A stretch of 64,000 bases of DNA from a virus. The DNA lies in the IMG/VR virus record IMGVR_UViG_3300028840_003271, positions 32,001 to 96,000 of that record. One strand, given 5' to 3'. The position numbers and the translations under genes are program-made. Positions 23,440 through 47,243 of the stretch are shown piece by piece; positions within the stretch are counted from its first letter, which is position 1, and every line of letters starts with the position of its first letter. The notes below the pieces were generated by a model. The model was not told the origin of the DNA and ran no database searches. It saw nothing but the letters and a program-made list of their open reading frames with translations.

Positions 23440-24036
23440 TTATTTTTCTTTCATTAATTTAACAGGACTAAGGGATGGATGAAAACTAAACTCGACTCCA
23501 TCTTTATGCTTTTCATTTATTGAACAATAATAACTTCCCCAATTTGTTCTTCCTTGATGAGAATCCAATTCTATTGATCGTTTTCTATCAAATACTTCTT
23601 TGATTAAACAACATCCACACATTTCGGCACATTTTTCAAGTAAAGGTAAAGAAAAAGCATATCCACCATAATAACTTTTTCCAACTATTAGTGTTACTTC
23701 ACTACAAGGTCCAAATTCTTGTTGGTTTACACAACTTGCTCGACTAGACCACGGACCTTTCAATATCTTATCAGTTCCATTTTTCATTTTAATGTTAAAG
23801 TGACACCCTCCAAATCCATTTCCAGGTCGTTTATAATAGAAAAATTTATAAATTCCTTCATATTCTGCTACGTATAATCCATTTTTTTCTTCAAAAATAA
23901 AATTATCCGGTTCTGGTATCTTATCTACCAAAACCTCAAATGTAGGTGAGTTAGCGTAATCTTTATACCAACGAACTCTACAATTTATAATTTTCATGCT
24001 TCCGATCTTTACATGAGAGAATAGACATATGTACAC
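23440..24036 (-). CDS. Conserved-looking phage hypothetical protein
   Basis: GFGG..F.I.M..G....LKGPWSS motif; probable start at MKIINC. Confidence 0.6.
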   Translation of the reverse strand: MYICLFSHVKIGSMKIINCRVRWYKDYANSPTFEVLVDKIPEPDNFIFEEKNGLYVAEYEGIYKFFYYKRPGNGFGGCHFNIKMKNGTDKILKGPWSSRASCVNQQEFGPCSEVTLIVGKSYYGGYAFSLPLLEKCAEMCGCCLIKEVFDRKRSIELDSHQGRTNWGSYYCSINEKHKDGVEFSFHPSLSPVKLMKEK

Positions 24037-24460
24037 TCAAATCCCTTATGAGAATATCTTCATATTTATTATGGTAACAATTGGAACATATATACCGTTC
24101 TTGTTCTTCTTTGTAATTATAGTCACTAATCATATTAGTTTCGTAAAAGATTTTAAAACAAATTGGACAAGTTCTTAAACTGTTTATGTCTATGTCTATA
24201 TTCATTTGAATTCGTTTTTCAAACTCGTTCTTAGTTTCATTGTCCTTCATATTACAATATTCTTGACCTAAATAAACTGAACTAGGATAATTATTTGGAT
24301 CACCATAAAAGAAACAAACACCCAATTCTTTAAGAATTAAACCCTTTTCTTGTGCTAACTCTTCTACTCTTTCGTCAAATTCAGATTCTTTTGAACTAAT
24401 ACCAAAAATAGTAAAACTGGTTGAATTGGAATTAGATACAAAACCCTGTCTAATTTTCAT
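23978..24460 (-). CDS. NSS-motif protein 5 (possibly fused to a CxxC domain)
   Basis: N-terminus MKIRQGFVSNSNSTSF; C-terminal CPIC...CSNC. Confidence 0.75.
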   Translation of the reverse strand: MKIRQGFVSNSNSTSFTIFGISSKESEFDERVEELAQEKGLILKELGVCFFYGDPNNYPSSVYLGQEYCNMKDNETKNEFEKRIQMNIDIDINSLRTCPICFKIFYETNMISDYNYKEEQERYICSNCYHNKYEDILIRDLSVHMSILSCKDRKHENYKL

Positions 24461-24561
24461 AATTTTTTCCTTCTTATTGTGTTAGAAAATCAACTACTTC
24501 GTGTGAAAAATTTAACTTTTGTGCTACATATAAAAATAATGAGTGTCTGCTGTAAAATATA

Positions 24562-24855
24562 TCACATACTCTCTCCTTCCACATGTTCTAAATTTACTCC
24601 AATACTTTGAAGATATTCGTTTACTTTATTTATATCGTGTTGTTCCATTACTCCATGAAAATAATATTTTCCATTTACAATAAAAGTTTCTGTACTTAAT
24701 CTTTTTGTCCAGTCTACATTTTTATCGTTTGCTAAATCTTTTTGATATTTTAACCACTTATCAAACAAAACTATTTGTTTTTCTGTTATAAAGTTTTTAC
24801 CAAGCACAAAACTCGACGACGACGAATTACTTACAAATCCACTTCTAATCTTCAT
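24562..24855 (-). CDS. NSS-motif protein 4
   Basis: N-terminus MKIRSGFVSNSSSSSF. Confidence 0.8.
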   Translation of the reverse strand: MKIRSGFVSNSSSSSFVLGKNFITEKQIVLFDKWLKYQKDLANDKNVDWTKRLSTETFIVNGKYYFHGVMEQHDINKVNEYLQSIGVNLEHVEGESM

Positions 24856-25321
24856 TTAAGAAATCCTCAATAGGTATTTTGTGATAACCCACTTTAATTG
24901 CTTCTGTATTCAAATCATTATAAGCACCATATGTTTCCATATATGTTCCATAATTATATGCTTTAATAACGTAATCATCTTTATTACAATAAAAAATATG
25001 TTCATGACCATAATGACAACAAGCACTAAATGAAATTTTATTCTCGATAAGAAACTTAATTATATCATCTTGATTACAAACTACACTATATATTAATGAA
25101 TTAGCATCGTTTGGTAAAACTTTATTTTTATCGTATAAAAATCCGTGTTCAAGATGAGAAGGATGTAAACAACTAGAAAACACAAAACCATAATCTAATA
25201 ATTTTTGTGTTTGTAATGGTGTTAAATTGTTTAATAAATTATCTGTATGAAAAAAACCTTTAATCTTTACTACAAATGATGAAGACGAACTATTTGATAC
25301 AAATCCTTGTCTAATTTTCAT
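24845..25321 (-). CDS. NSS-motif protein 3
   Basis: N-terminus MKIRQGFVSNSSSSSF. Confidence 0.8.
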   Translation of the reverse strand: MKIRQGFVSNSSSSSFVVKIKGFFHTDNLLNNLTPLQTQKLLDYGFVFSSCLHPSHLEHGFLYDKNKVLPNDANSLIYSVVCNQDDIIKFLIENKISFSACCHYGHEHIFYCNKDDYVIKAYNYGTYMETYGAYNDLNTEAIKVGYHKIPIEDFLNED

Positions 25322-25330
25322 TCTTAACTC

Positions 25331-25831
25331 CTAATAATTATCATTGTCTGTTTGAATATAACTATCTTCAGAAAAAAGAAACTTTTCAAGAATTTCGTCA
25401 CTATCAAAGATTTCCATATTTTGATTTTCAGAAGCATTAGATTCGTGGTCAATATATCCATGTTGTTCAGAATTCCAATCATTCCAGCTAGATGGCCAAA
25501 TGAACGCTTTAATTGATGGAATATTTTTTACTAATACTTTTTCTAACATTGACAAATATTGATTACTATATATACTGTTTTCATTATAATTTCTTTTTGG
25601 TTCAGCATATTGACTTTGATAAAAAGCCCATAGAACTTTTGAACCCAAATCATAATACTTTTCAGGGTCCCACCCAAATTCTTTAGTACCAAATATTTTG
25701 TGAACATCAAGAACACCCATTGTATCAACATATTCATCAAACTTTTTAATAAAATTAGTGCTAATTTTACGTCCAACACATACAAAACTTGACGATGATG
25801 AATTACTAACAAAACCATTACGAATTTTCAT
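25331..25831 (-). CDS. NSS-motif protein 2
   Basis: N-terminus MKIRNGFVSNSSSSSF; also EFGW, GYIDHES and C-terminal TDNDN. Confidence 0.8.
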   Translation of the reverse strand: MKIRNGFVSNSSSSSFVCVGRKISTNFIKKFDEYVDTMGVLDVHKIFGTKEFGWDPEKYYDLGSKVLWAFYQSQYAEPKRNYNENSIYSNQYLSMLEKVLVKNIPSIKAFIWPSSWNDWNSEQHGYIDHESNASENQNMEIFDSDEILEKFLFSEDSYIQTDNDNY

Positions 25832-25849
25832 TTTATTTCTCCCTAATTT

Positions 25850-26893
25850 TTACTCCAAGTTATAAACAAAACAGCTTCGACCATTATTTAAAAGACGACG
25901 ACGCCATTTAATCAGACGTGGATTGGTCCACACATCTTTATGAAAGTCGTTACAGTTTAAAATATCAATGCCTTGCTCCCATTCTGACTCACCTTCAACA
26001 AACGAACACGGAAATCCAAAACCGTTACAATTAATGTAAAATGAAAATAGTGAACTTTCACAAGGTTCCACATATTCGCTCAGTTTGTCATAGTTTGGTC
26101 TGTCTTTAATTGCTGACAAATATATTCCAGCAGAACAGGAATCGAAACCATAAGCAACTCCTAATTGTTCACATAATTGAATAAGTTCACGATATTTATT
26201 AACATCTCGAAGGCTATGATAACCGGACTGTTTACCTTTACCTTTTGGTTTAAATTGTAAAAATACAATAGCATTTAATTTTGACAGACGAGAATCGGTA
26301 GAAATATCTTGTACAACCTGTTTTGCTTTTTCAAAAGTTTCTTCTGCTAATACAAAGTGGATATTAACTTGTTTCATTCCAACATCGGTAAACTTTTGTA
26401 TAGCATTATAGCTTGATTCCTTGTTAACAATACTTACTGCTACAGCACCCAATAATTGAGATGCTTTTTGAGCAACTTCATCAGTTACACCTAATCCATT
26501 ACAAGTAAGATTTGGAATTACTCCTTTTTCTTCTCTTAAAAATTGACAAATTTGCCAAAGTTTAGGATGGCTATCAATATCACAAATACCCAAGGCAACT
26601 TGACACACCGTGTTTGGAATTTTACTCCACAACTTTCTAAAAGTTTTCAAACTCATATATCGTCGTAACTCATTACTACCATTAGACTTATAACACCACC
26701 GACAATTTCCTGAACAGTACCCCTCACTAATTTCAATGTCTAAAAGTTCAACCGATGGAGCATATTGTGGATCATCTTCTTTTGTTTCTCCCCAACGAGC
26801 AAAAAAACCATTCTTTTTTGAGAAGAAAAAATTATAGTCGGGTGAAATGCAAATCTTACATTGTGGATAATCAAGAATTTGCACATTATTCAT
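25850..26893 (-). CDS. Radical SAM protein with C-terminal SPASM/twitch-like Cys motifs
   Basis: CSGNCRWCY (CX3CX2C), PNLTCNG, GAVAVS, GFDSC, CESSLFSFYI...G...PCSF and terminal RSC; start moved to ATG 26893 (MNNVQ). Confidence 0.85.
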   Translation of the reverse strand: MNNVQILDYPQCKICISPDYNFFFSKKNGFFARWGETKEDDPQYAPSVELLDIEISEGYCSGNCRWCYKSNGSNELRRYMSLKTFRKLWSKIPNTVCQVALGICDIDSHPKLWQICQFLREEKGVIPNLTCNGLGVTDEVAQKASQLLGAVAVSIVNKESSYNAIQKFTDVGMKQVNIHFVLAEETFEKAKQVVQDISTDSRLSKLNAIVFLQFKPKGKGKQSGYHSLRDVNKYRELIQLCEQLGVAYGFDSCSAGIYLSAIKDRPNYDKLSEYVEPCESSLFSFYINCNGFGFPCSFVEGESEWEQGIDILNCNDFHKDVWTNPRLIKWRRRLLNNGRSCFVYNLE

Positions 26894-26894
26894 T

Positions 26895-27266
26895 TTAGTC
26901 ATCCAAATTAATAAGAACAATTGAACCAGAATCAGCAAGTTGCTGTAACTTAGTATTTAGATATTCATCATAGTAACTAATATCTGCTTGAATAAAATAA
27001 TAATCTGGATATTGACTTACTGTTTGAACAATTTCATCACCTTTGATGTAAAAATCAATCATACCATCTTTAATTTTATGTCTAAAAATGTCATTATCAT
27101 ATTCAATACTTGTTTTATTATAACGATAACTATGTGTTTCAATTAAGTCTTTAATATCTACAGATGTAGATTGACCACAAGTTGGACAAGCTTTACTTTC
27201 TTGTGGATAACCAATAACGAATGAGGATGAACTACTGTTACTTACAAATCCTGATCTAATTTTCAT
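26895..27266 (-). CDS. NSS-motif protein 1
   Basis: N-terminus MKIRSGFVSNSSSSSF followed by CPTCG. Confidence 0.8.
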   Translation of the reverse strand: MKIRSGFVSNSSSSSFVIGYPQESKACPTCGQSTSVDIKDLIETHSYRYNKTSIEYDNDIFRHKIKDGMIDFYIKGDEIVQTVSQYPDYYFIQADISYYDEYLNTKLQQLADSGSIVLINLDD

Positions 27267-27283
27267 TTTATTTCTTCTTTTTT

Positions 27284-27787
27284 TTAATTAACAACTAAAA
27301 TTTGAATATTACTATATTGATGAATATTATCTATTTCTGTAATAGGAACGTTTTTGACTAATTCGGTTTCATCATAAACAGCTTTAATAGAATTGTGACT
27401 ATATTTGGACACACATAATATGTTATCATTAATTTTATATATATGATAATTTTGTTTAAAATTAGGAATTTGGACAGAACTTGTTATTGAATGAATATGT
27501 ACTAAATCATTTTTAATTTCTTGATTTACCATAATAGAATAACCATGTCTAATGGATCCATGTTTTGTTTTTAATTTCGGATATATTTCAAAATATCTTG
27601 TTGTATAAGGACAAATATTTAATTTTGCTATATGAAAATTATTTTCGTCTAAAATTAGAAGAAATAGATTTAAACTATCTGTATGAGCAACATAACTAAA
27701 CTGTTGTTCAGAACTAAATTCCATATGAAAAAGTGATACTGGACGATATCCACATTCACTCGGCAACACATGTTCTAATAGTTTCAT
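27284..27787 (-). CDS. Hypothetical protein
   Basis: ORF in operon. Confidence 0.5.
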   Translation of the reverse strand: MKLLEHVLPSECGYRPVSLFHMEFSSEQQFSYVAHTDSLNLFLLILDENNFHIAKLNICPYTTRYFEIYPKLKTKHGSIRHGYSIMVNQEIKNDLVHIHSITSSVQIPNFKQNYHIYKINDNILCVSKYSHNSIKAVYDETELVKNVPITEIDNIHQYSNIQILVVN

Positions 27788-28013
27788 TACATGTTTCCTT
27801 TTTGTTTCTAGTTACATAACAAGTGTTTTTGGTTTCAGGAAATTTAGTGGTTGCGTTTGTAATACTCAAAGTTTTTATTTTAGTAGAATTTGTAATTTTT
27901 TCTTTTTTTGAAGAAACGGTTTTATTATTTGTTAAAAATTTTAATATATCACTATTTGTAATGTTAAATACTGGTGTACTACTATTACTAATAAAATTAA
28001 CACGAACTTTTAT
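27756..28013 (-). pseudogene. Degenerate sixth NSS-motif gene with lost or non-canonical start
   Basis: GGAG, 7 nt, then ATA AAA GTT CGT GTT AAT TTT ATT AGT AAT AGT AGT ACA CCA GTA TTT = (I)KVRVNFISNSSTPVF. Open for 85 codons. ATA overlaps the upstream TAA as ATAA where an ATGA overlap would be expected. Confidence 0.6.
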
Positions 28014-28214: not shown

Positions 28215-28916
28215 TTATTTTTGTTTTTGTTTGATTTTTTTCCAAACACTGTTAACACCTTTTGGTTGAGTGCCGTGTAACAATAAAGCAAAATTTCCAC
28301 GATTTGTTAAAGCGTGTAATTCAGTAGAACTAACGGGTAAAGATAAAGACCGTGCTGATTTTTTTGTAAATAAAACACGACTATTTTTAAGACGGTATTT
28401 TTCAATTAAAAAGTCGTGAGTTCCTCCATATGATGCTGTTAAAATAAAATTCGGAGGAACTTCACGACGACATTCTATCCAAAACGGCAATGCTTTAGTA
28501 TAAGCATAAAATTTTATATCTGGATGTTTTTCTGCTAGTTTACACGCTGCTTGAAAATATTCCTTTTTGAAAAAATCACCAGCAGTATGAAATCGTATAA
28601 TTGAAGCATCAATAGGAAGTGTGCGGTCCATCAAGTTAGTTAGGTTATTCACACCACGAGTACTTTTTATACACTCAAAATTAGATTTATGGAGAGAAAA
28701 AGTATGTGGATATAACGCTTCCAATGATACAGCATAACATCTAAATTTACACGACGGACTATCTTTTACTTTACGTTGTCCATCTATTATTACTACTTTT
28801 GATTTACAATCTTTAGCAAAAGGACAAGAATATCCCGCTAATAAATCAAGCGAGTAAACCTTTCCTGTAAAAGGAATTTTTTTAAGTTTGGTGTTTGCTG
28901 GACTATATTTTAACAT
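28215..28916 (-). CDS. GP88-family (radical-SAM-related Fe-S) phage protein
   Basis: N.KL.K, LLAGYSCP.A..C...CYA, RFHTAGDFF, FYAYTK, SYGG and FALLLHG.Q. Confidence 0.7.
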   Translation of the reverse strand: MLKYSPANTKLKKIPFTGKVYSLDLLAGYSCPFAKDCKSKVVIIDGQRKVKDSPSCKFRCYAVSLEALYPHTFSLHKSNFECIKSTRGVNNLTNLMDRTLPIDASIIRFHTAGDFFKKEYFQAACKLAEKHPDIKFYAYTKALPFWIECRREVPPNFILTASYGGTHDFLIEKYRLKNSRVLFTKKSARSLSLPVSSTELHALTNRGNFALLLHGTQPKGVNSVWKKIKQKQK

Positions 28917-32000: not shown

Positions 32001-32009
32001 AATTTTCTC

Positions 32010-38344: not shown

Positions 38345-38396
38345 TTTCCACCAAGTTTGTTTGAGTATTTAGAGGTTTAGTTTTTCTTTTTTATAG

Positions 38397-38479
38397 TGAC
38401 CTAGATGGGATTTGAACCCATATGTCATAAAGACACAGCTTTTTAAGAGCTGAGTGTATACCTATTCCACCACTAGGTC
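38397..38479 (-). tRNA. tRNA-Leu(UAA)
   Basis: Acceptor GACCTAG/CTAGGTC, anticodon arm CAGCT-CTTAAAA-AGCTG, long variable arm, GGTTCAAATCC; CCA not encoded. Confidence 0.9.
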
Positions 38480-38493
38480 AACCCTTTTTGTTT

Positions 38494-38643
38494 TATCCCC
38501 AATGTGTCATGTTTAGTGGAACACAATAATTTTGTCCACGACATTTCAAGACTACATAATCTTTTCCACTACCCACACAAAGATATTCTTGTCCCTTAAG
38601 AAAAGGAAAATAATCTTCAGTCATAAAGACAACTTCGCTCATT
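38494..38643 (-). CDS. 49-aa hypothetical protein
   Basis: MSEVVFMTEDYFPFLKGQEYLCVGSGKDYVVLKCRGQNYCVPLNMTHWG; GAGGAG upstream. Confidence 0.45.
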
Positions 38644-38647
38644 TCTT

Positions 38648-39232
38648 TTACTCCTCGGGAAAACATTCTTTGTAAATCTTTTCAACGATTTCTTTGCTAA
38701 TTGTATGTGATTTTTCACCAACATTACCAGCGTAGTGTATCCATTCTCCATCTATATCAATTTTGACATAATTACCTTGAACCTTAATTGGTGTGAGTCT
38801 TTCATAGATTTGTTTTATTGTTTGTTTTGTAATTTGAACACAACCAATTTTTACCACGTCTGATGTGTCACTAATTTCAACGTCGTAATCACCAATTTTA
38901 ATTTTTTCCTTTTGGGGAAAGTTTTGAAGAAGGTTGACAGCTTCTTCAATTGAAATTTGTCGCACATTTCTTGCACTTTTCTGTGGGTTCCATCCAAGAT
39001 TTCGATAGTCAGTTTTATCGTGTACAATAATCAACCAAGGGTATTTGTTATAACTTATTTGGTCCAAATTAAATATATTCCACTTATTTTCTTTTGCAAT
39101 TGCGTAAATAATTTTAGCTATTTCTACACACAAAGGATCAACTTGTAATTCAAATTCATCTGACAGTGTTAGTTCTGTTACGCTTTTCATTTGTTTTACT
39201 CCTTTAGATAGGAACATTTTCCAGTTATCCAA
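38648..39232 (-). CDS. Hypothetical protein, paralog family with 13123 and 39370
   Basis: EIAK...IA...W...PWL...GWNP...QISIEEA...VKIGC..I....I..IY; probable start at MKSVTE. Confidence 0.6.
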   Translation of the reverse strand: MDNWKMFLSKGVKQMKSVTELTLSDEFELQVDPLCVEIAKIIYAIAKENKWNIFNLDQISYNKYPWLIIVHDKTDYRNLGWNPQKSARNVRQISIEEAVNLLQNFPQKEKIKIGDYDVEISDTSDVVKIGCVQITKQTIKQIYERLTPIKVQGNYVKIDIDGEWIHYAGNVGEKSHTISKEIVEKIYKECFPEE

Positions 39233-39369
39233 CCCTTGTTACAAAGTAGGAATTGTTAGGAAAATGACATTTCCAAATTTCCGCTTGTTTTTCTGCTTTT
39301 TGTTGGTCAAACCAAGTAGAGAGACTATATTGAAAATCTTCCCACTTGCTATTTCGACGCCATACTATT

Positions 39370-39768
39370 TTATACACTTCTTTTCTCCTGAAATTTCAGG
39401 TAAATTTTCTTAACTGTTTCGGCGTCAATTGTTTGACAACCCACTTTAATATACTTTTCGTGAAAAATAACTGGATAACCATCAATAAAGACTTGTTGAT
39501 CTTCCGTAATTATTGGTATAATTTCATCAATAGTAAATTGTCTCAAATTATCGTATGATTTGTTTGGATTAAATCCCACATGTCTGTCTTGATAAAAGAC
39601 TAACCAACATTCTTGAAAGCGACAATTGCGATAATTGTCAAATATACTTTCTGGTGTAAAATTGATTATCCAGCCGTGTTCTTGAGCAATCTTAACCAAA
39701 GTTTTTGCAACTTCAAGATTTAGCGTGTTAACTTCAACTTTTACTTCGTCAGGTAGAAATTCAGCCAT
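39370..39768 (-). CDS. Hypothetical protein, paralog family with 13123 and 38648
   Basis: EVAK.L..IA..HGW...WLVF...GFNP...IKVGCQ.I....V..IY. Confidence 0.6.
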   Translation of the reverse strand: MAEFLPDEVKVEVNTLNLEVAKTLVKIAQEHGWIINFTPESIFDNYRNCRFQECWLVFYQDRHVGFNPNKSYDNLRQFTIDEIIPIITEDQQVFIDGYPVIFHEKYIKVGCQTIDAETVKKIYLKFQEKRSV

Positions 39769-39950
39769 TTTTTCCCTTTCTAATCAACAGTAAAGTTACT
39801 TTTGTTAGTTGCAGTTACTAAATAACGCCCCATAGAATTTCATAAAACACTTTTACCATGTCTTCATAGGACATCATATTTGTATCATATCCCATATCTT
39901 CTAATTCATCTTTTAATTCTCCAGGTGATATGTAACTACAATTGTACATT

Positions 39951-40307
39951 TTATTGTTTCCTTTCTTTTTGAGAAAGATTGCTCGTAAGATAAAATCGAT
40001 TTGCTAATTCCAATTTATACATTTCCTTTTTTTCCCCTTCCCACATTTCCCAAATTTCTTGTATTGAAATGTTATATTTAGTTTGAATTTTTTTAATTAG
40101 TTTGTGCAGATCTTTATTTGCTGTTTCTAGTCCTTTATAAGCAGTTTGAATAGCGTGTAAGTGTTCGTGTGTATTTAGATTTTCAACGTTAGGATATTCT
40201 GGAGCAATTCTTATTGCCATTCTTGCGACGTGTGAGTGTAATTGATTTATTTTATCAATACAGGTTTTAAGACGTTTAACAATAGATTGTATTTTTCTTC
40301 TCCTCAA
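39951..40307 (-). CDS. Hypothetical helical protein
   Basis: ORF coupled to the upstream gene. Confidence 0.45.
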   Translation of the reverse strand: MRRRKIQSIVKRLKTCIDKINQLHSHVARMAIRIAPEYPNVENLNTHEHLHAIQTAYKGLETANKDLHKLIKKIQTKYNISIQEIWEMWEGEKKEMYKLELANRFYLTSNLSQKERKQ

Positions 40308-40933
40308 AAAAGAATTTTACCCTCTGGACTAAAATCCAAAGTTGACAATTCATTCAAACAAATAAAGCGGGTTCCTTTATACATTAGGATTTTATTGTTG
40401 TGATGATGACCAAATATCCACAAACCTGGTTGATGAAAATGAAAACATGCTGATAACAAACGGGTTGTATTTGAAAAATTTAGTTTTCCATAATGAGTAA
40501 CTACTTTTTTTGCTATTTGAAAAGGACAATCGTGTGATAAGACTATATTTGGTTTTATTTTACAGTATGCGTCATATGCAGCTTTTTGCTGCATAAAATT
40601 TAATTCTTCCTCTGGCCACCAACTTACTCCTTCAATTCTATATTTTTTGTCTACAGAATAAGCTCCACGAATAAAGAAAAAGTCAATTGGTGAGGAAAAA
40701 AAAGGAATAGTGTGTATTCCAAAATTTCCTAAAAAGTGCGGACGATTTATATCGTTATAATTATCATGATTACCAGGAATTATTTTATGTTTTCGACTGT
40801 CTACTTTATCCAACACAGAATAATCAAACCCAAAATCTCCCAATTGGATCGAATATTCTGCATCGGAAATTAGTTGGAGATATTGTTCATATTTTCCATG
40901 AATATCTCCAATAATTTGAAGATATTTAGTCAT
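40304..40933 (-). CDS. Calcineurin-like metallophosphoesterase
   Basis: GDIHG, LGDFG, GNHD, SHDCP and FGHHH. Confidence 0.9.
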   Translation of the reverse strand: MTKYLQIIGDIHGKYEQYLQLISDAEYSIQLGDFGFDYSVLDKVDSRKHKIIPGNHDNYNDINRPHFLGNFGIHTIPFFSSPIDFFFIRGAYSVDKKYRIEGVSWWPEEELNFMQQKAAYDAYCKIKPNIVLSHDCPFQIAKKVVTHYGKLNFSNTTRLLSACFHFHQPGLWIFGHHHNNKILMYKGTRFICLNELSTLDFSPEGKILF

Positions 40934-41030
40934 TTCTTTTCTTCTTCTAATTCGTGTTTTATTTGACTAGGTTGGAGGTTGTTTTCAATAAAAAGGCTTC
41001 ATATATTAGGAGAACTAACAGGATAAAACG

Positions 41031-41061
41031 AAAAAAGGGTGCCACATATTGTGACACCCTA
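41031..41061 (-). terminator. Intrinsic terminator
   Basis: AGGGTGTCACA-AT-ATGTGGCACCCT followed by a T-run, just after the 41065 gene. Confidence 0.7.
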
Positions 41062-41064
41062 CAT

Positions 41065-41301
41065 TCAGTATGAACCTTCAATATATTTTCCCGCATCAAT
41101 TAGTGCATATACACTGCTTGCGAGAAACATTGCTATTTCGTGTTTATGTCTTTTACTAAATATGTCGGTTGGGTCGTCTGCAATATTCCATTCAAACGGA
41201 TCTTTACAGTCTTCAATTTTACACGTTCCTGTTAAAACGTGCTTATCATAATCAAACTTGACTTTCACTCTATCAAAAGTCTGAGTAATATTGATTATCA
41301 T
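41065..41301 (-). CDS. Hypothetical protein
   Basis: ORF with Shine-Dalgarno, followed by a terminator. Confidence 0.55.
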   Translation of the reverse strand: MIINITQTFDRVKVKFDYDKHVLTGTCKIEDCKDPFEWNIADDPTDIFSKRHKHEIAMFLASSVYALIDAGKYIEGSY

Positions 41302-41795
41302 CGTTTCTTTTTTCCTTTTTCTGGTCGGACACCAAGTTACTTTGGGTAATCAAACATTTCTATTTGTATTTTTTATTCTTCCATTTCTTTTCTCCTGAAA
41401 TTTGAAATTTATTCGATTAGATTACAGTTTGTTTTCAATAAAAAGGTTTCACATATTAGGAGAACTAACAGGATAATAAGATATGACAAGGGGTATAGCA
41501 TACTATTTACTATCCATTTTTTTATTTGTGAGAATGAACGTAACACGATAATTACAAACAAGATGATAACTACTTAATAAGAGTAAAAGAAGAATACAAA
41601 CCATACATACTATATATTCAGAAGAGGGGGGGGTGTTTCTGAATTTTTAGATAATAATACCTTTATATTAAAAACAAAAAAACTATTAAAATAACTATGA
41701 CCTTCAAGTCAATAATCTTGATTTTTACTTCAATAAACCATGACTATGACTACACTTATGACTTTTGCAATAATTGACTTTTTTAAGTAGGAAAG

Positions 41796-41867
41796 TAGGA
41801 CTATATGGAATCGAACCATATCCTCGGCCTTATAAGAGTCGCGTGCTTACCATTACACCATAGTCCC
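41796..41867 (-). tRNA. tRNA-Ile(UAU)
   Basis: Acceptor GGGACTA/TAGTCCT, D-arm GTGT/GCAC, anticodon loop CTTATAA, T-arm TATGG-TTCGATT-CCATA; anticodon stem has an A-C mismatch and a U-G pair. Confidence 0.8.
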
Positions 41868-42031
41868 ATACTTTTTATTTGTAGATTTGTTAGATGTGTC
41901 TACCCGACTGAAAAAAAACCTTACTAGTCTTACTGAAAAAAAACTGAAAAAAAACTTTGGCCGATTTCAAAGAAAATGTATGATTTCATATGTCAAAGTG
42001 AAAAAAACACGATACTATTGAAATAGGAGAT

Positions 42032-42295
42032 ATGACTATGACTAAATGTTTATGTTGTGGTTTTCAAACAAATAATCCAAAGTTTTGTTCTTGTTCTTGT
42101 GCCAACTTATATAATTATAGAAAATATCCAAGACGATTAGGGCGGCGAAAAATTAATGAGATAAAAAAAGACATGTCCAAAAAACCAAATCATATTTGTA
42201 AGTTTTGTTCTGCTGAATTTTATAGCCCACATAAAAACGCCAAGTTTTGTTCTCGACTATGTTTTCAACGTCATATGAAAAAGCTTTTTGACTAA
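42032..42295 (+). CDS. Zinc-finger repeat protein resembling the N-terminus of HNH homing endonucleases (nuclease domain absent)
   Basis: C..CG...KFCS.SC and C..C...F......KFCSR.C; AGGAG Shine-Dalgarno; lies antisense between two tRNA genes. Confidence 0.55.
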   Translation: MTMTKCLCCGFQTNNPKFCSCSCANLYNYRKYPRRLGRRKINEIKKDMSKKPNHICKFCSAEFYSPHKNAKFCSRLCFQRHMKKLFD

Positions 42296-42302
42296 TTTTA
42301 AG

Positions 42303-42374
42303 TGGGACCATTGGGAATTGAACCCAAATTGCCGGATTAAAAGTCCGGTGTTCTACCATTTGAACTATAGTCCC
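42303..42374 (-). tRNA. tRNA-Lys(UUU)
   Basis: Acceptor GGGACTA/TGGTCCC, anticodon arm CCGGA-CTTTTAA-TCCGG, GGTTCAATTCC; CCA not encoded. Confidence 0.92.
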
Positions 42375-43257: not shown

Positions 43258-43562
43258 TTTCTTTTCCTTTATTTTAAGGAGAAAAAAACAGACTACTTAA
43301 TTACAATCAATAATAGCACCACCAATCTTTTTCCGTTAGTTCTAGTGCTAAGATAACCGTGTTTTCCGCACTCATTTTTTCTCTCCTTAAATACTGACTA
43401 TGCCTGACTACCGAATTTTCCACCAAATTAGATTGGGTAATCATTTTCACATTTGGTGGCGAATTGTTTCTTTTTTTGTTTTCTCTTTTTTCCTTCTATA
43501 CTACATTTTACCTATTCAGCTTGCCCCACAAGGGGGGGTTGCATAGGCGAGGTGCCGCAACC

Positions 43563-43591
43563 ATTCTAGCATATCGGCAGACCGAATACAA
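43563..43591 (-). promoter_or_regulatory. Sigma70-type promoter P1
   Basis: TTGTAT-17 nt-TAGAAT with extended -10 TG; near-identical upstream context to P2. Confidence 0.7.
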
Positions 43592-43610
43592 CCCCTAGAA
43601 TGTTTTTCTA

Positions 43611-43626
43611 TGGCATAGCTTTTGCT
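43611..43626 (+). promoter_or_regulatory. Sigma54-like -24/-12 site
   Basis: TGGCATAGCTTTTGCT (GG-N10-GC). Confidence 0.55.
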
Positions 43627-43720
43627 GGAATACCCCCCGATTTGACTAGACAGACGGCTGACACTATATATAGATAATGCCATAGCATTTGTACATCACT
43701 AATGGGAGGGGGGAGCGAAT

Positions 43721-43896
43721 CCCACACCCCCCAAAGGTACCCCCCTAGGTGGAGAATGCTGTGCCCCACACCCCTCGAAGGCACCCCCCTGGTTGGATAG
43801 GGTTGTTCCCCACACCCCCTAGAAGTGCTTCTCCCCTAGGTGGGGGGTAGGGTATCCCTCGCGTGCGAAGCTGGAGTAGGGTATCCCTCGCGTATG
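43721..43896. repeat. GC-rich module copy A (three CCCACACCC units at 44-bp period)
   Basis: Units at 43721, 43765 and 43809; aligns with 44971..45146, including the identical GTTGGATAGGGTTGTTCCCCACA. Confidence 0.85.
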
Positions 43897-43901
43897 CCCA
43901 C

Positions 43902-43924
43902 AAAAAAAGCCCCCTTGCGGGGGC
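43902..43924 (-). terminator. Intrinsic terminator
   Basis: GCCCCC-GCAA-GGGGGC-TTTTTTT. Confidence 0.9.
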
Positions 43925-43935
43925 GAGCATGTTTC

Positions 43936-44076
43936 CTATCGCTTTGATAGGGTTTTCATGCGTTGTTGGTGGTGCCATCCTGCCTTGTGTCGGTCTAGAT
44001 TGCCTCCTCTGACGCGAAGGCCACATTGAGGGCATTTCTTGGGGCTTTGTTGGGAAGGGTCAGTTTTCGTTGTCAT
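43936..44076 (-). CDS. 46-aa C2H2-type zinc-finger microprotein
   Basis: MTTKTDPSQQSPKKCPQCGLRVRGGNLDRHKAGWHHQQRMKTLSKR; GGAG Shine-Dalgarno; ends just before the terminator. Confidence 0.65.
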   Translation of the reverse strand: MTTKTDPSQQSPKKCPQCGLRVRGGNLDRHKAGWHHQQRMKTLSKR

Positions 44077-44113
44077 AACACAGACTCCGTAAAAGGGGAA
44101 GGGAAGCTACAAG

Positions 44114-44329
44114 CTAGTTGATACAATTGGGCGTACGCAAGGGGTGCCCTTTGTCGAACGTGTAACGATAGGGGTCTGCAAGACCATTGTCGATTTGGTG
44201 TTCTTCAGTCTCATATGGTCCTTGGCGAGGACAATCGAGAACTGGGCGGATATGCCACCCTATCGGGGCAATGTGGCGGATTGCTACATAGCCCACTATC
44301 ATATCTTGCGTGCTACCATAAAGGGACAT
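44114..44329 (-). CDS. Hypothetical protein (GC island)
   Basis: ORF from MSLYGS. Confidence 0.45.
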   Translation of the reverse strand: MSLYGSTQDMIVGYVAIRHIAPIGWHIRPVLDCPRQGPYETEEHQIDNGLADPYRYTFDKGHPLRTPNCIN

Positions 44330-44414
44330 GTTTGATTCTTGGGTTATAGGGTGCAGAGAAGCTGACCTATTCTCCCCCCTCCGGAGAGGGGGGGTGGTAG
44401 GGTAGCTTGCCGTG

Positions 44415-44735
44415 TCACTCTTCAGTGTCTTCAACAAGAAGGGCAGTAAACGCGGTCTTTTTTCCGCTTCCCTTTGCTCGCCCCCTTGGAAGGGAAGGAA
44501 GGATAATCCCCCTTTCCTTCTTCAGGGCATTACGCAGTTCGACGCGAACCTTTTTCGCGTCATCAAGGGACAGTTGAAATTGTTCGGCGAGCTCTTCATT
44601 GGTGAGGGTCGCTTTGCCCTGGGCATCGGTCGCCTGCAATGCAACTACCATAGGGCGGGTACGACGTGCCTTGGCAATCAGTACTTCCCTCGTGTCGCCC
44701 GAAACCGCAACATAATCCTCGTAACTTGCCATCAT
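44415..44735 (-). CDS. Hypothetical DNA-binding-like protein (GC island)
   Basis: First gene after promoter P2; HTH-like TNEELAEQF...LRNALKKERGIILP.L.RG; GC-rich codons. Confidence 0.6.
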   Translation of the reverse strand: MMASYEDYVAVSGDTREVLIAKARRTRPMVVALQATDAQGKATLTNEELAEQFQLSLDDAKKVRVELRNALKKERGIILPSLPRGRAKGSGKKTAFTALLVEDTEE

Positions 44736-44788
44736 TCACCCTTTCGCAAAACAGAGAATAGAATCGGTTGAAACGCACAACACCTCTG

Positions 44789-44817
44789 ATTCTACACTGT
44801 CGACAATCGGAATACAA
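44789..44817 (-). promoter_or_regulatory. Sigma70-type promoter P2
   Basis: TTGTAT-17 nt-TAGAAT, same hexamers as P1. Confidence 0.7.
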
Positions 44818-44846
44818 CCCCTAAAATGTTTTTTTTTGATTCCGTT

Positions 44847-44862
44847 TGGCACAAAATATGCT
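44847..44862 (+). promoter_or_regulatory. Sigma54-like -24/-12 site
   Basis: TGGCACAAAATATGCT (GG-N10-GC). Confidence 0.55.
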
Positions 44863-44889
44863 ATTGGTGACGGACCATCAAGATAGATC

Positions 44890-44918
44890 GACTGACTGAC
44901 TGACTGACTGACAGACTA
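44890..44918. repeat. GACT tetranucleotide microsatellite
   Basis: gactgactgactgactgactgacagact; a degenerate counterpart gactagacagacggctgac lies near 43644. Confidence 0.8.
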
Positions 44919-44970
44919 ACTACTTCGCGTGGGGGGTAACCAGGTCTCCCCCCTGTCGGCAGATACCGTA

Positions 44971-45146
44971 TTCCACACTCCCCAAAGGAGTATCCCCCTT
45001 GTGGAGAGTGTTGTTCCCCACACCCCCCGAAGGTATCCCCCTAGTTGGATAGGGTTGTTCCCCACATCCCCCAGTGGTGTTTATCCCCCGAGTGGGGGGT
45101 GGAGTTCTCCTCGCGTGCGAGATCCAGCAGGGTATCCCTCGTGTGC
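44971..45146. repeat. GC-rich module copy B
   Basis: Units at about 44972, 45017 and 45061; homologous to copy A. Confidence 0.85.
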
Positions 45147-45397
45147 TAGGCTAGGCCAAGGGGCAGGAAAAAGTCCCGATCGGCAAGATATTGTTCCATG
45201 CCATGGTACCATGCTGCCCATGCAATAGGATCGTGGGTGAGGGAGAAGGGGTTGTCGGTTGGATGGTCATATCCCCGATTGTACCCCCTCGCATAATGGG
45301 GGTCATACATGAATCTATGCCAATCCCTCTGATTAGGGGGTATGTCGGCAAAATGCCGATCGAGTATTGCAATGTGGCGAAGGGGTTCGGTTAGCAT
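45146..45397 (-). CDS. Hypothetical protein (GC island)
   Basis: GGAG Shine-Dalgarno; Y.RGY..GY.....NPF.......AW..G pattern. Confidence 0.55.
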   Translation of the reverse strand: MLTEPLRHIAILDRHFADIPPNQRDWHRFMYDPHYARGYNRGYDHPTDNPFSLTHDPIAWAAWYHGMEQYLADRDFFLPLGLA

Positions 45398-45409
45398 GGA
45401 TGATTCTCC

Positions 45410-45715
45410 CTATTCTGAGGGGGCAAGATAGAATCTTATCAAAGCTTGTCTTTCATCTTCCGAAATGGAGGGAAAGACTCCCTTCATATAAGAAGCTTTC
45501 TGTACTCGCGTAAAATGCGGAAGGGGGGTTCCCTTATCGCTCAGTCCGAAAATACGATATAGTAATCGGGGGAGATCACCTTTGAGATGCACACCTTCCC
45601 CCTCATCGAAGGGGGTTTCGCCTTGTGCCCTTCTGCCGAGAGTGTAGAACTGGGCAAGTTCTTCCACCCTTTCGGGAGTAGCTCGCCGAGGGGCATATGG
45701 TATCGGAAGGAACAT
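45410..45715 (-). CDS. Hypothetical protein (GC island)
   Basis: AGGAGG Shine-Dalgarno; stop/start coupling. Confidence 0.55.
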   Translation of the reverse strand: MFLPIPYAPRRATPERVEELAQFYTLGRRAQGETPFDEGEGVHLKGDLPRLLYRIFGLSDKGTPLPHFTRVQKASYMKGVFPSISEDERQALIRFYLAPSE

Positions 45716-46062
45716 CAGGAATCCTCCTTTTGGGGGGTAACTAGATAGGCGAGCATTTTCGCAAACTCATCCGACTTTTGGGGGGTATTGTTCCCTCTCC
45801 TTTTTCTCCCCTGTTTTGAGGTATACTTATACCTCCCCTTGCAATTGTTGGGGTGTTTGCCTACTGCCGTTTTCGGATAGCGGCGAGCTAGGATACCTTC
45901 CGATTCTGCCTGACTTGATATGGCCTTGTCCCTTGTCTTTCTCGCCTCCACTAGTTCCATTGCCTTTTGTGGAGTTAGTTTCTGTATCTCGGCAGAGGAA
46001 AGGTACCGTTTCATAAGAGGCAGCATCATCTCCACCAAAATGGGGGGTGTGTTCTCAGTCAT
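45715..46062 (-). CDS. Hypothetical basic protein (GC island)
   Basis: Probable start at MTENTPP with AAGG Shine-Dalgarno. Confidence 0.5.
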   Translation of the reverse strand: MTENTPPILVEMMLPLMKRYLSSAEIQKLTPQKAMELVEARKTRDKAISSQAESEGILARRYPKTAVGKHPNNCKGRYKYTSKQGRKRRGNNTPQKSDEFAKMLAYLVTPQKEDS

Positions 46063-46522
46063 CGTATTACTACCTTTTGGGGTGGAAGGGATTGTACTAG
46101 GCCGGTGGTCGAATCGACCACTATAGCTCGTAATCGCTTGCTGTTTGCCTCCCTTACGTAGGCTAGCAGATAGCCCATGCGGGAGGTTCTCAGTCGGTTG
46201 TTTACTGGCGTGCGTCGAATCTCGACTTGCATTGTTCATCCTCCTGCTAGGGGGAACTAGTCCCCCGCTTGCCGAAGTAGTTCCTTTGGGGACAACCCCC
46301 CCGATTGTAGGGCAATCCACTCCGCCCTACTCTGCAATCCCCCCTGCTGGTTGTCGATTCTCCGCCCGATGGTGGGAGAGCTATCGGTATGCAAAGGGGA
46401 TATCGGGGTATTCTGTACAATCCCGAAAAAGGTTCCTTTCGTGCGGGGAGGTTCCTTGCCTCCGATAGGGAAGCACAGTTTCCCTTTGCGGAATTGCCCC
46501 TTGCGTTGACGGGGTTGAATCG

Positions 46523-46810
46523 TCACCATGGTCTTCCTTCATGGAGTATAAAGGTTGCCATTTCATAGGCTAACTTGGCCTGTAATAGACCGAGGTGTGG
46601 CAACACGGACCGAATAACCTTTATCGTGGCAAGTCTTCTCTCATTGCCGCTACTAAGGTTATATTGGCACAATGCCATGATACTTTTGTATTCCTGTTCT
46701 TGCAATTCAAGGGTGGGGTTCGGCTGGTCCATTTGCCACGATCCGTCTGCCTGCTCCCGATACGTTACTACCACGCCATTGTCGCCATGAATTCGGATTA
46801 CGTGTTGCAT
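46523..46810 (-). CDS. Protein with ribosomal L7/L12 C-terminal-like motif
   Basis: RLATIKVIRSVLPHLGLLQAKLAYE resembles K..aIK.vR..tgLGLkeAK..vE; AAGGGG Shine-Dalgarno. Confidence 0.55.
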   Translation of the reverse strand: MQHVIRIHGDNGVVVTYREQADGSWQMDQPNPTLELQEQEYKSIMALCQYNLSSGNERRLATIKVIRSVLPHLGLLQAKLAYEMATFILHEGRPW

Positions 46811-46981
46811 CGCCGATCCCCTTATGCGAAAGTACAGTTCCGATTCTCACCGGATTGTGAGAATCTACCGAAGTATAGCATTGTCAAGCCCACCCCCCAA
46901 AAGATATTCGTCGCAAGTCGGTTCATAGTCAATACTTAGGGCAATATTTTTCTCGAAGTGGACACACCGAAAAATGAGACC

Positions 46982-46997
46982 AGCAAACCGTATGCCA
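46982..46997 (-). promoter_or_regulatory. Sigma54-like -24/-12 site facing the island genes
   Basis: TGGCATACGGTTTGCT. Confidence 0.55.
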
Positions 46998-47243
46998 ATG
47001 GTTCGGTATGGCATTTGCTGTCGGGTTTTGGTACGAAAGTTGCTGTGAGTCCAGGTGGGGGGGATGCCGGCACCCGTAGGATATAGTAGGATTTGGGGCT
47101 GTGGGGCATAGGTTCGCAGAGAAGGGGGAGAACAAACGTTCATACCCCATATGGGTGGGTGGTATTTTCTGATTTTGGGTTGTGGGGGATATTATACCCC
47201 CCAAAAACGGAAGGCATGTATTCTAAATATAGACCAAACAATA

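Follow-up and report, generated by a model that had tools for sequence, protein, structure and literature searches.

A radical SAM enzyme paired with an N-terminal tag on unrelated small proteins: a candidate protein-modification system of viruses and some cellular genomes

This analysis concerns a module of six genes in the window, by which we mean the whole 64,000-nucleotide stretch at positions 32,001 to 96,000 of the IMG/VR virus record IMGVR_UViG_3300028840_003271. Five of the genes encode small proteins that begin with the same short sequence (the tag) and continue into unrelated bodies, and the sixth encodes a radical S-adenosylmethionine (SAM) enzyme (rSAM). Probably, the rSAM enzyme is a maturase that singly recognises the N-terminal tag, a portable element of many otherwise unrelated cargo proteins, and modifies it chemically. 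A preliminary description of the window had taken the tag for a portable motif, either substrate or recognition site, that serves a swappable set of cargo, and this is supported by the co-occurrence of tag and enzyme, the unrelatedness of the bodies, the fold of the enzyme and the modelled binding of the tag.

The six genes are close-set on the minus strand, running from 27266 to 23978 in the order t123, rSAM, t166, t158, t97, t160. The stop codon of t123 and the ATG of the rSAM gene (26902) overlap by 8 nt; at the remaining junctions, the genes are 18, 9 and 101 nt apart or, in one case, overlap by 11 nt, in agreement with the tight packing noted before. The five minus-strand open reading frames (ORFs) listed in the preliminary description as sharing MKIR[SNQ]GFVSNS[SN]S[ST]SF were all confirmed, with a likeness far beyond chance, and a six-frame scan combined with a profile search found exactly these five copies of the tag in the whole 170,004-bp genome. 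The enzyme has the CX3CX2C motif ascribed to it (C63/C67/C70) as well as extra C-terminal cysteines, namely the conserved C256, C281, C299 and C344. The extent of the module had been set too wide: the range to 28013 takes in an untagged 167-aa ORF (27284-27787), which we place outside the module because it has neither a tag nor a homolog in any related locus.

The pairing of tag and enzyme was followed from both sides. An alignment of rSAM homologs was scanned against viral contigs and the best 80 of 204 relatives were kept; in 76 of these 80 rSAM-centred loci, 1-11 tagged ORFs lie no more than 10 kb from the enzyme gene, every one of them on its strand. Over 96 distinct rSAM loci, 377 tagged ORFs lie downstream and 50 upstream of the enzyme gene, and none is truly antisense. 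Conversely, tagged proteins are not commonly found without this rSAM clade, the enzyme being present within 10 kb in 42 of 60 tag-centred loci. Where it was missing nearby, ten whole records were searched: both of the records that are at least 90% complete (2/2) have the enzyme elsewhere, and no rSAM gene was found in the other eight, which are fragments of 5-88% completeness. Among enzyme genes without a neighbouring tag, that of Klebsiella phage KP15 (KP15_135) has no tagged ORF within 5 kb, and the exact tag opens two proteins of this phage, KP15_97 and KP15_102, that are encoded about 20 kb away; the record behind another such locus (L008) holds three intact tagged ORFs elsewhere, likewise about 20 kb off; and three further rSAM loci without a nearby tag are fragments (2-31% complete), with one split tag-like match in one of them and none in the other two. 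In Vibrio phage D479, five tagged ORFs lie upstream of the enzyme. Every complete genome examined, including those of the cultured phages KP15 and D479, has both tag and enzyme. The co-occurrence of motif and rSAM clade, which the preliminary description suggested testing, is almost complete in both directions. Of the ten untagged neighbours in the window, none has near-full-length homologs in two or more of the roughly 185 related loci; because untagged neighbours are not kept in these loci, the conserved unit consists of the enzyme and the tagged proteins, and nothing else. In KP15, the tagged genes flank KP15_100 (L147:2327-4543), a protein of 738 aa with an annotated MIDAS (vWA-type) site; vWA proteins also occur in the conflict systems of PMC7159879.

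Over 455 distinct tagged ORFs, the consensus of the tag is M-K-[ITV]-R-x-G-F-V-S-N-S-S-[ST]-[STA]-S-F-[IV]-[IV]. Its most invariant positions are S9, N10, S11 and S12 (453-455 of 455). K2 (452/455) and R4 (453/455) are near-invariant too and constitute an independent confirmation of the tag, as neither was part of the search pattern. Slight variation is seen at G6, which is kept in 433 of the 455 tags and replaced in 22, and at F7, which is kept in 442 and gives way to H, Y or W in 11 of 13 replacements. A variant with D6 and T9 exists, and the database protein P0105 bears such a variant tag, MK[VI]R.DFVTNSS.... The tag begins exactly at the start codon in 561 of 573 occurrences and is preceded by one extra residue in seven (MA-, MS- or MC-KIR); two occurrences are chance antisense matches. 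It is N-terminal in 568 of the 573 occurrences, among which no internal or C-terminal tag was found, and it joins a hydrophobic strand (F16-[IV]-[IV]) directly, with no linker. At equivalent positions of the five window copies, Ser is encoded by AGT, TCA, TCT, TCG and TCC. This switching between the AGY and TCN classes indicates selection on the peptide and not on the DNA, and speaks against a recent DNA duplication, as had been argued from the same codons before; it likewise rules out selection on DNA or mRNA in place of the peptide. A 35-residue tag profile matched 25,275 of 1.84 billion representative clusters (50% identity) at E ≤0.001, a figure that may contain some Ser-rich false positives, and 466 at E ≤1e-10. 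Two tags per protein were seen in the database proteins P0096-P0101 and P0105, the second one internal and still starting MK.R; by their sequences, these proteins look like adjacent tagged ORFs that have been joined, be it by stop loss, stop-codon recoding or as a gene-calling artefact.

Behind the tag, the proteins have little in common. After removal of the first 20 residues, 460 tagged proteins fell into 136 BLAST clusters (100 singletons), and profile-profile comparison of the 14 largest clusters with hhalign gave two relations, one between clusters 4 and 11 (probability 90.6) and a weak one between clusters 0 and 8 (43.8); the divergence of the bodies, first noted for the five window proteins, extends to almost all of these families. 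Four of the window bodies belong to recurrent clusters: t160 to cluster 1 (41 members in 36 loci), t166 to cluster 3 (33 members), t158 to cluster 7 (12 members in 12 loci) and t97 to cluster 11 (9 members), the partner of cluster 4. The fifth, t123, is a BLAST singleton among the 460 tagged proteins, with at least 60% of its length matched in three other loci. Conserved motifs vary by body family, the His-containing ones being YIDHQS, lEHg, S.Hd and hYgH. The tagged proteins measure 66-305 aa, one fusion reaching 423 aa, and among their bodies are zinc-ribbon, alpha/beta and leucine-rich-repeat (LRR) ones. A Pfam domain was found in only one of 138 body representatives, the 423-aa protein of an Asgard metagenome-assembled genome (MAG; L183:2640-3911), a fusion of the tag with leucine-rich repeats; it is the sole tagged protein with a recognisable domain. 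Apart from this Pfam match, the tagged proteins have no significant family in Pfam, NCBIfam or PADLOC, and the zinc-ribbon Pfam matches of t160 are weak and below threshold. In PHROGs, they match only the unannotated families phrog_7397, through the tag alone, and phrog_6688.

For t166, which has 93 full-length homologs, the AlphaFold2 (AF2) model has a predicted local distance difference test (pLDDT) score of 85. Residues 1-10 score below 50, the body is confident, and residues 11-20 form a confident part of it. With the first half of the tag a low-confidence tail in this model and the bodies unrelated to one another, the tag does not appear as the core strand of one fold shared by all tagged proteins. 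No match to the t166 model was found among solved structures, either with Foldseek (best E 2.1) or with VIA-align (48,161 chains; best Z 2.3), and in the ESM Atlas the model matched only viral clusters of 'hypothetical proteins' and, weakly, a Tad2-like (Thoeris anti-defence 2) cluster, with template modelling (TM) scores of 0.57/0.40. As a weak lead from this model comparison, the t166 cargo family could be an anti-defence sponge. A tblastn search with t166 against 50,697 phage records gave no match, the low-complexity filter probably masking the tag.

The rSAM enzyme is built of three parts: an all-beta domain at the N-terminus, the core with its CX3CX2C motif, and a C-terminal domain in which four Cys are conserved. 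It belongs to the unannotated PHROG family phrog_7293 (E 3e-73). Among 56 homologs, C63, C67, C70, C256 (in GFDSC), C281 and C299 are invariant and C344 is near-invariant; the N-terminal stretch G32-F-F34-A-R36-W37-G38 is invariant or nearly so. The AF2 model of the enzyme (pLDDT 95.2) was matched at Z ≥8 by 250 solved rSAM chains, the top Z of 23.1 identifying the core as the partial TIM barrel of the PF04055 fold (Table 1). The profile score of the window enzyme for PF04055 is 19 bits, compared with a cut-off of 29.5, which bacterial, archaeal and spirochaete homologs pass (51.5, 33 and 31.6 bits). The two best structural matches are peptide maturases, in line with the maturase reading of the preliminary description. 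None of the named Pfam and NCBIfam maturase models reaches its cut-off with this enzyme.

Table 1. Solved rSAM structures matched by the model of the window enzyme (VIA-align).
Structure	Z	Aligned residues	Model residues	Remarks
SuiB bound to SuiA	23.1	309	10-350	rmsd 3.7; N-terminal domain included
SkfB	23.1	284	14-342	
anSME	20.6	273	50-350	
CteB	19.9	259	49-350	
ChlB	19.1	272	47-350	
PqqE	18.9	258	47-348	
EpeE	18.2	250	20-348	
PFL-activase	13.8	194-199	52-253	core only

The C-terminal domain lacks the full seven-Cys SPASM motif (CX9-15GX4C ... CX2CX5CX3C ... C): there are four extra Cys only, and no CX2CX5CX3C. The SPASM models were matched at E 0.41 by the window enzyme (PF13186) and with 20.7 bits, compared with a cut-off of 27, by a bacterial homolog (TIGR04085); one spirochaete homolog passes PF13186 (26.1 compared with 21.5 bits). 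Hints of a twitch-like domain are the four Cys, a GX4C-like NGFGFPC ahead of C299, the place of the twitch enzyme SkfB as joint top structural match and a weak BtrN profile match (E 0.058). The four extra Cys would fit one auxiliary cluster of the twitch-like kind, and do not fit the seven-Cys SPASM arrangement. Of the cyclophane-family models, AmcB alone gave a match, with E 0.0068 and 15.5 bits against a cut-off of 425 bits, and for a spirochaete homolog only.

Complex prediction, another check suggested earlier, was performed for the rSAM enzyme (56-row alignment) and the 35 N-terminal residues of tagged proteins (95-row alignment), together with SAM and two 4Fe-4S clusters. The predicted enzyme-tag complex scored 0.91, compared with 0.01 for the best of three controls. 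A score of 0.91 is reached by 58 of 80 solved complexes and by 2 of 110 mismatched pairs, a rough guide in view of the custom alignments and riding ligands used here. Runs share at least 64% of their contacts, with a pLDDT of at least 57 for the tag partner. The interface is formed by tag residues 1-20: residues 2-4 strand-pair with enzyme residues 32-37, G6-F7 contact residues 101, 131, 152-153 and 178, and enzyme residues 250-256 and 276-300 take part as well. Several of the contacted residues, Q101, N131, G152 and Q178 among them, vary little or not at all across the enzyme family. The model thus supports binding of the tag at conserved residues of the enzyme; the atom that faces SAM is beyond its resolution.

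On the reading that we favour, an enzyme with one auxiliary-cluster (twitch-like) domain would recognise the invariant tag on otherwise unrelated small proteins. Tag residues 2-4 would dock as a beta-strand on the G-F-F-A-R-W-G strand of the enzyme, much as a leader of a RiPP (a peptide made by the ribosome and modified after translation) docks on its recognition element, and G-F-V-S-N-S-S would then cross the open face of the SAM barrel, where the 5'-deoxyadenosyl radical would take a hydrogen from the tag and so start a covalent change. One enzyme could in this way serve a swappable set of cargo, five proteins in this phage and up to 15 in others. The best chemical clues are the invariant S-N-S-S core and the near-exclusively aromatic replacements at F7. 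Each candidate chemistry is tentative when taken singly: a C-C or cyclophane-type crosslink involving F7 leads by a little, Ser C-beta oxidation of the formylglycine type comes next, level with some other reaction, and epimerisation is the most doubtful. The biological role probably lies in virus-host conflict, because the cargo genes are fast-turnover genes of an early region and some cellular cassettes adjoin defence-type genes.

Several observations weigh against this reading. Two viral fragments (79% and 88% complete) have tags and no detectable rSAM gene, in some genomes the enzyme and the tagged genes are at least 20 kb apart, and the pair is not accompanied by a conserved leader protease or other tailoring gene. 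The score of the predicted complex expresses how confident the model itself is and may draw on solved structures of maturases with their peptides, and the tag has a pLDDT of only about 58 in the complex. That the tag is covalently modified, and where, is inferred here. Several body families have conserved D/E-H motifs of their own, and the tag might be part of each active site. Lastly, the tag is far more conserved than the enzyme, being identical across enzymes that are 28-40% identical. Such constancy is unusual for a peptide that serves recognition alone, and each residue may be constrained by product chemistry, or by some downstream partner common to all tagged proteins, beyond what binding to the enzyme requires. 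A bolder proposal, which we hold to be conceivable and short of an even chance, takes up this last point: the pair might represent an unrecognised class of protein modification, in which the rSAM enzyme installs a crosslink, an aldehyde or a cofactor-like group on the universal tag of thousands of unrelated folded proteins. Viruses of bacteria and archaea would use it, and so would their hosts, in minimal cassettes beside Avs2-like STAND and OLD-family genes. It would be a 'radical tag' currency shared in virus-host conflict rather than a RiPP pathway, and the constancy of the tag among such divergent enzymes would reflect product chemistry, not recognition.

Co-occurrence and predicted binding would fit equally well without catalysis. 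The tag might bind the rSAM enzyme unaltered, the tagged proteins acting as adaptors, regulators or pseudo-substrate plugs and the true substrate being something else (for example a small molecule, nucleic acid or host protein). Highly diverse bodies are what adaptors for different targets would be expected to have, and the enzyme is carried by Slopekvirus phages, which are reported to have a DNA modification of unknown kind (PMC5219037). We nevertheless think this unlikely: in the model, the tag contacts invariant barrel residues and the N-terminal strand, as a peptide substrate would, the nearest structural relatives all modify the peptide they bind, and the minimal cellular cassette comprises the enzyme and one tagged protein with no obvious third party. 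Distance between some tagged genes and the enzyme would also be accounted for if the tag were an enzyme-independent signal for targeting or assembly (capsid targeting, a degron or a co-assembly strand) and the rSAM gene a mere co-inherited neighbour. T4-type internal proteins show a similar pattern, and the Ser/Asn-rich sequence resembles short self-pairing peptides. Such a signal leaves unexplained the near-complete two-way co-occurrence in genomes with a single enzyme clade while no other neighbour is conserved, and the complex prediction that passes its controls; the tag moreover contains no Glu, and hence no T4-type L/I-x-E protease site, and cassettes of tag and rSAM are found in bacterial and archaeal chromosomes without capsid genes nearby. 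We rate it slightly below the binding-only arrangement.

The direct entry of the tag into a hydrophobic strand, the confident placement of t166 residues 11-20 in the body and the conserved His-containing motifs of several body families would all suit membership of the tagged proteins in one very divergent superfamily, the 'tag' being its N-terminal element for catalysis or ligand binding, such as a Ser nucleophile loop acting together with a downstream D/E-H motif. This is the least probable of the alternatives. Few body families are related by profile-profile comparison, and their lengths and their zinc-ribbon, alpha/beta and LRR architectures differ widely; tag residues 1-10 of t166 lie outside the fold, which matches no hydrolase or other solved structure; and the obligate partnership with the enzyme would have no explanation.

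Of the characterised systems, SuiB, which forms the Lys-Trp crosslink of streptide, and SkfB, a twitch enzyme that forms a sactipeptide thioether, are like the window enzyme over nearly its whole length, N-terminal domain included. They share with it the CX3CX2C motif and what would be its C-terminal auxiliary-cluster domain, and also, as predicted here, the docking of a substrate strand on the N-terminal domain before the substrate crosses the barrel. Their sequence identity to the window enzyme is only 15-16%, however, and neither Cys, Trp nor a Lys-Trp pair is conserved in the tag. Their substrates are short precursors, whereas those proposed here are folded proteins of 66-305 aa, with no conserved leader protease or exporter, and the hosts are mostly viruses. 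As modelled, the N-terminal domain also looks unlike the canonical RiPP recognition element, a PqqD-like winged helix that binds the leader as an added beta-strand: the alignments with SuiB and SkfB reach residues 10-50 and strand pairing is predicted between tag residues 2-4 and enzyme residues 32-37, yet residues 7-37 are modelled as strands only, with no helices.

In the prochlorosin system, one promiscuous lanthionine synthetase (ProcM) acts on many precursors (ProcA) with a conserved leader and hypervariable cores; the core is modified and the leader removed. The present system is similar in having one enzyme gene, many substrate genes that are sometimes dispersed, an invariant N-terminal sequence and a variable remainder, and different in that the enzyme is an rSAM protein and the invariant tag, which runs straight into a folded body, is itself the apparent site. 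The anaerobic sulfatase-maturing enzyme anSME, which converts Ser or Cys to formylglycine, resembles the proposed system as an rSAM enzyme whose target, a Ser within a short motif, lies close to the N-terminal end of a complete, folded protein. It has two auxiliary clusters, compared with the four extra conserved Cys here, and its structural match starts at residue 50, with no N-terminal peptide-binding domain aligned; its substrate motif C/S-x-P/A-x-R is absent from the tag, in which no Ser is followed by Pro/Ala-x-Arg. T4-type internal proteins are clustered, hypervariable small phage proteins with a conserved N-terminal tag. The T4 capsid targeting sequence is thus similar in form and also occurs in a T4-like genome; the differences are the missing protease-site Glu and the obligate partnership with an rSAM enzyme, and a capsid-targeting signal of this type was rejected for want of an L/I-x-E site and because cassettes occur in chromosomes without head genes. 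A glycyl-radical site and its activase were rejected as well: the motif R-V-x-G-[FWY] lies near the C-terminus of a large barrel protein, whose small activase has no C-terminal cluster domain, whereas the I-R-x-G-F of the tag has its Arg one position closer and is at the wrong end of the protein, G6 is replaceable (by Asp in the variant tag), and PFL-activase is a poor structural match when set against SuiB and SkfB. So was an SGNH/GDSL-like 'block I' Ser motif with a C-terminal D-x-x-H, as the proteins are too small, show no fold match and have the N-terminal half of the tag outside the fold.

FxSxx peptides and rSAM-SPASM enzymes occur in NTP-dependent conflict systems, the FxSxx motif being C-terminal (PMC7159879). 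The FxsA/FxsB triceptide pair is comparable in that an rSAM enzyme is associated with an aromatic-x-Ser motif, here F7-V8-S9, and in its association with STAND/AP-ATPase conflict systems (PMC7159879). It differs in the position of the motif, FXSXX-COOH at the C-terminus there and a strictly N-terminal tag here, in the full SPASM Cys motif, which is absent here, and in the lower structural match of ChlB (Table 1). This pair is not related to Ophion, a defence system of rSAM + PHP + PRTase (bioRxiv 10.1101/2025.09.30.679545).

Outside viral records, 41 loci with the tag were found in assemblies of bacteria and archaea, most of which are MAGs. In Acidobacteriota and Verrucomicrobiota, seven loci (L171:6736-11502, L151, L159, L170, L174, L176 and L177) hold an operon of four genes, encoding a 959-aa SMEK-domain Avs2-like STAND NTPase, a 128-aa protein (p128), a tagged protein of 137 aa and an rSAM homolog that is 29% identical to the window enzyme (E 3e-36). 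All four genes are present in four of the seven loci, the other three being without a match for the NTPase or p128; contigs of 1.47 Mb and 361 kb are among those that carry the operon. In L171, its neighbours are an Eco57I-like restriction-type methylase, a MerR regulator and integrases. Avs2 models match the STAND protein over the ATPase region only (PADLOC E 1.8e-23; NCBIfam 55 bits, with a cut-off of 1000), the tagged protein has no match in PADLOC, and the rSAM homolog matches only viperin (pVip) models there, over the rSAM core. Judged by its gene content, the operon looks like a candidate defence system that uses the same pair of tag and enzyme, for which no description was found. On a 793-kb contig of an Asgard (Promethearchaeota) MAG (L188:10001-13649), the tag/rSAM pair adjoins a gene for an OLD-family AAA/TOPRIM nuclease. 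In termite-gut spirochaetes, the enzyme and one tagged protein, and nothing else, are conserved amid housekeeping genes. The minimal unit is accordingly the enzyme with one tagged protein, and some of its cellular settings are typical of defence islands. Since such minimal cassettes sit in bacterial and archaeal chromosomes, the system is not confined to phages: its earlier designation as a phage system holds in so far as it recurs across hundreds of viruses, and fails as a restriction to them.

The viral genome that holds the window is complete (170,004 bp, direct terminal repeats, about 30% G+C). We read its source as a phage whose closest cultured relatives, with the rSAM gene alone compared, appear to be T4-like phages. 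The DNA occurs in a sediment and a seawater metagenome run, from which it may stem, and no RNA run is listed for this stretch. The genes of the module are listed in Table 2. Flanking window genes, including the 167-aa ORF, a 198-aa ORF and a GP88-family gene, were considered as parts of the module and rejected, as they have no homologs in related loci. The GP88 protein (233 aa; PF17338, E 1.6e-31) is encoded close upstream of the module at 28215-28916 on the minus strand and is not kept elsewhere. Further along the window, at 43500-47200, lies a 3.7-kb island of about 50% G+C within the 30% G+C genome, in which no long clean ORF is seen and for which Rfam, searched at E up to 0.1, gave no match; genes for tRNA-Leu (TAA), tRNA-Ile (TAT) and tRNA-Lys (TTT) are located directly upstream of it, at 38396-42374.

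Table 2. Genes of the module in the window, in order along the minus strand.
Gene	Coordinates	Strand	Description
t123	26895..27266	-	123 aa; N-terminal tag, CxxC-containing body; first gene of the module
rSAM enzyme	25850..26902	-	350 aa from ATG at 26902; frame open from TTG at 26938
t166	25331..25831	-	166 aa; tag and recurrent body family (EFGW, YIDHQS and DNDN motifs)
t158	24845..25321	-	158 aa; tagged
t97	24562..24855	-	97 aa; tagged
t160	23978..24460	-	160 aa; tag variant ...SNSNSTSF; CxxC...CxxC in C-terminal half; last gene of the module

The motif string of the tag had no match in the published literature searched, no description of this system was found in the literature on phage rSAM enzymes, RiPPs and jumbo phages, and the KP15/KP27 paper does not mention these genes. 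As far as searched, neither the enzyme nor the tagged proteins belong to a described family or paper. By analogy, their nearest conceptual relatives would be the rSAM RiPP maturases and the FxSxx/rSAM pairs (PMC7159879), which act on short peptides with C-terminal motifs. The cultured phages that carry the system, Klebsiella phage KP15/KP27 and Vibrio phage D479, offer direct experimental access to it. If the proposed modification is real, the tag would be a natural, transferable handle of 16 residues that makes any protein a substrate, which would be of interest for protein engineering, and the system would provide the first functional handle on more than 100 'dark' phage protein families. 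The chemistry of rSAM peptide maturation, so far one of short precursors of natural products, would then take in folded viral proteins by whole families, and the occurrence of the same pair beside STAND and OLD-type genes in cells suggests that it plays a role on both sides of the virus-host conflict.

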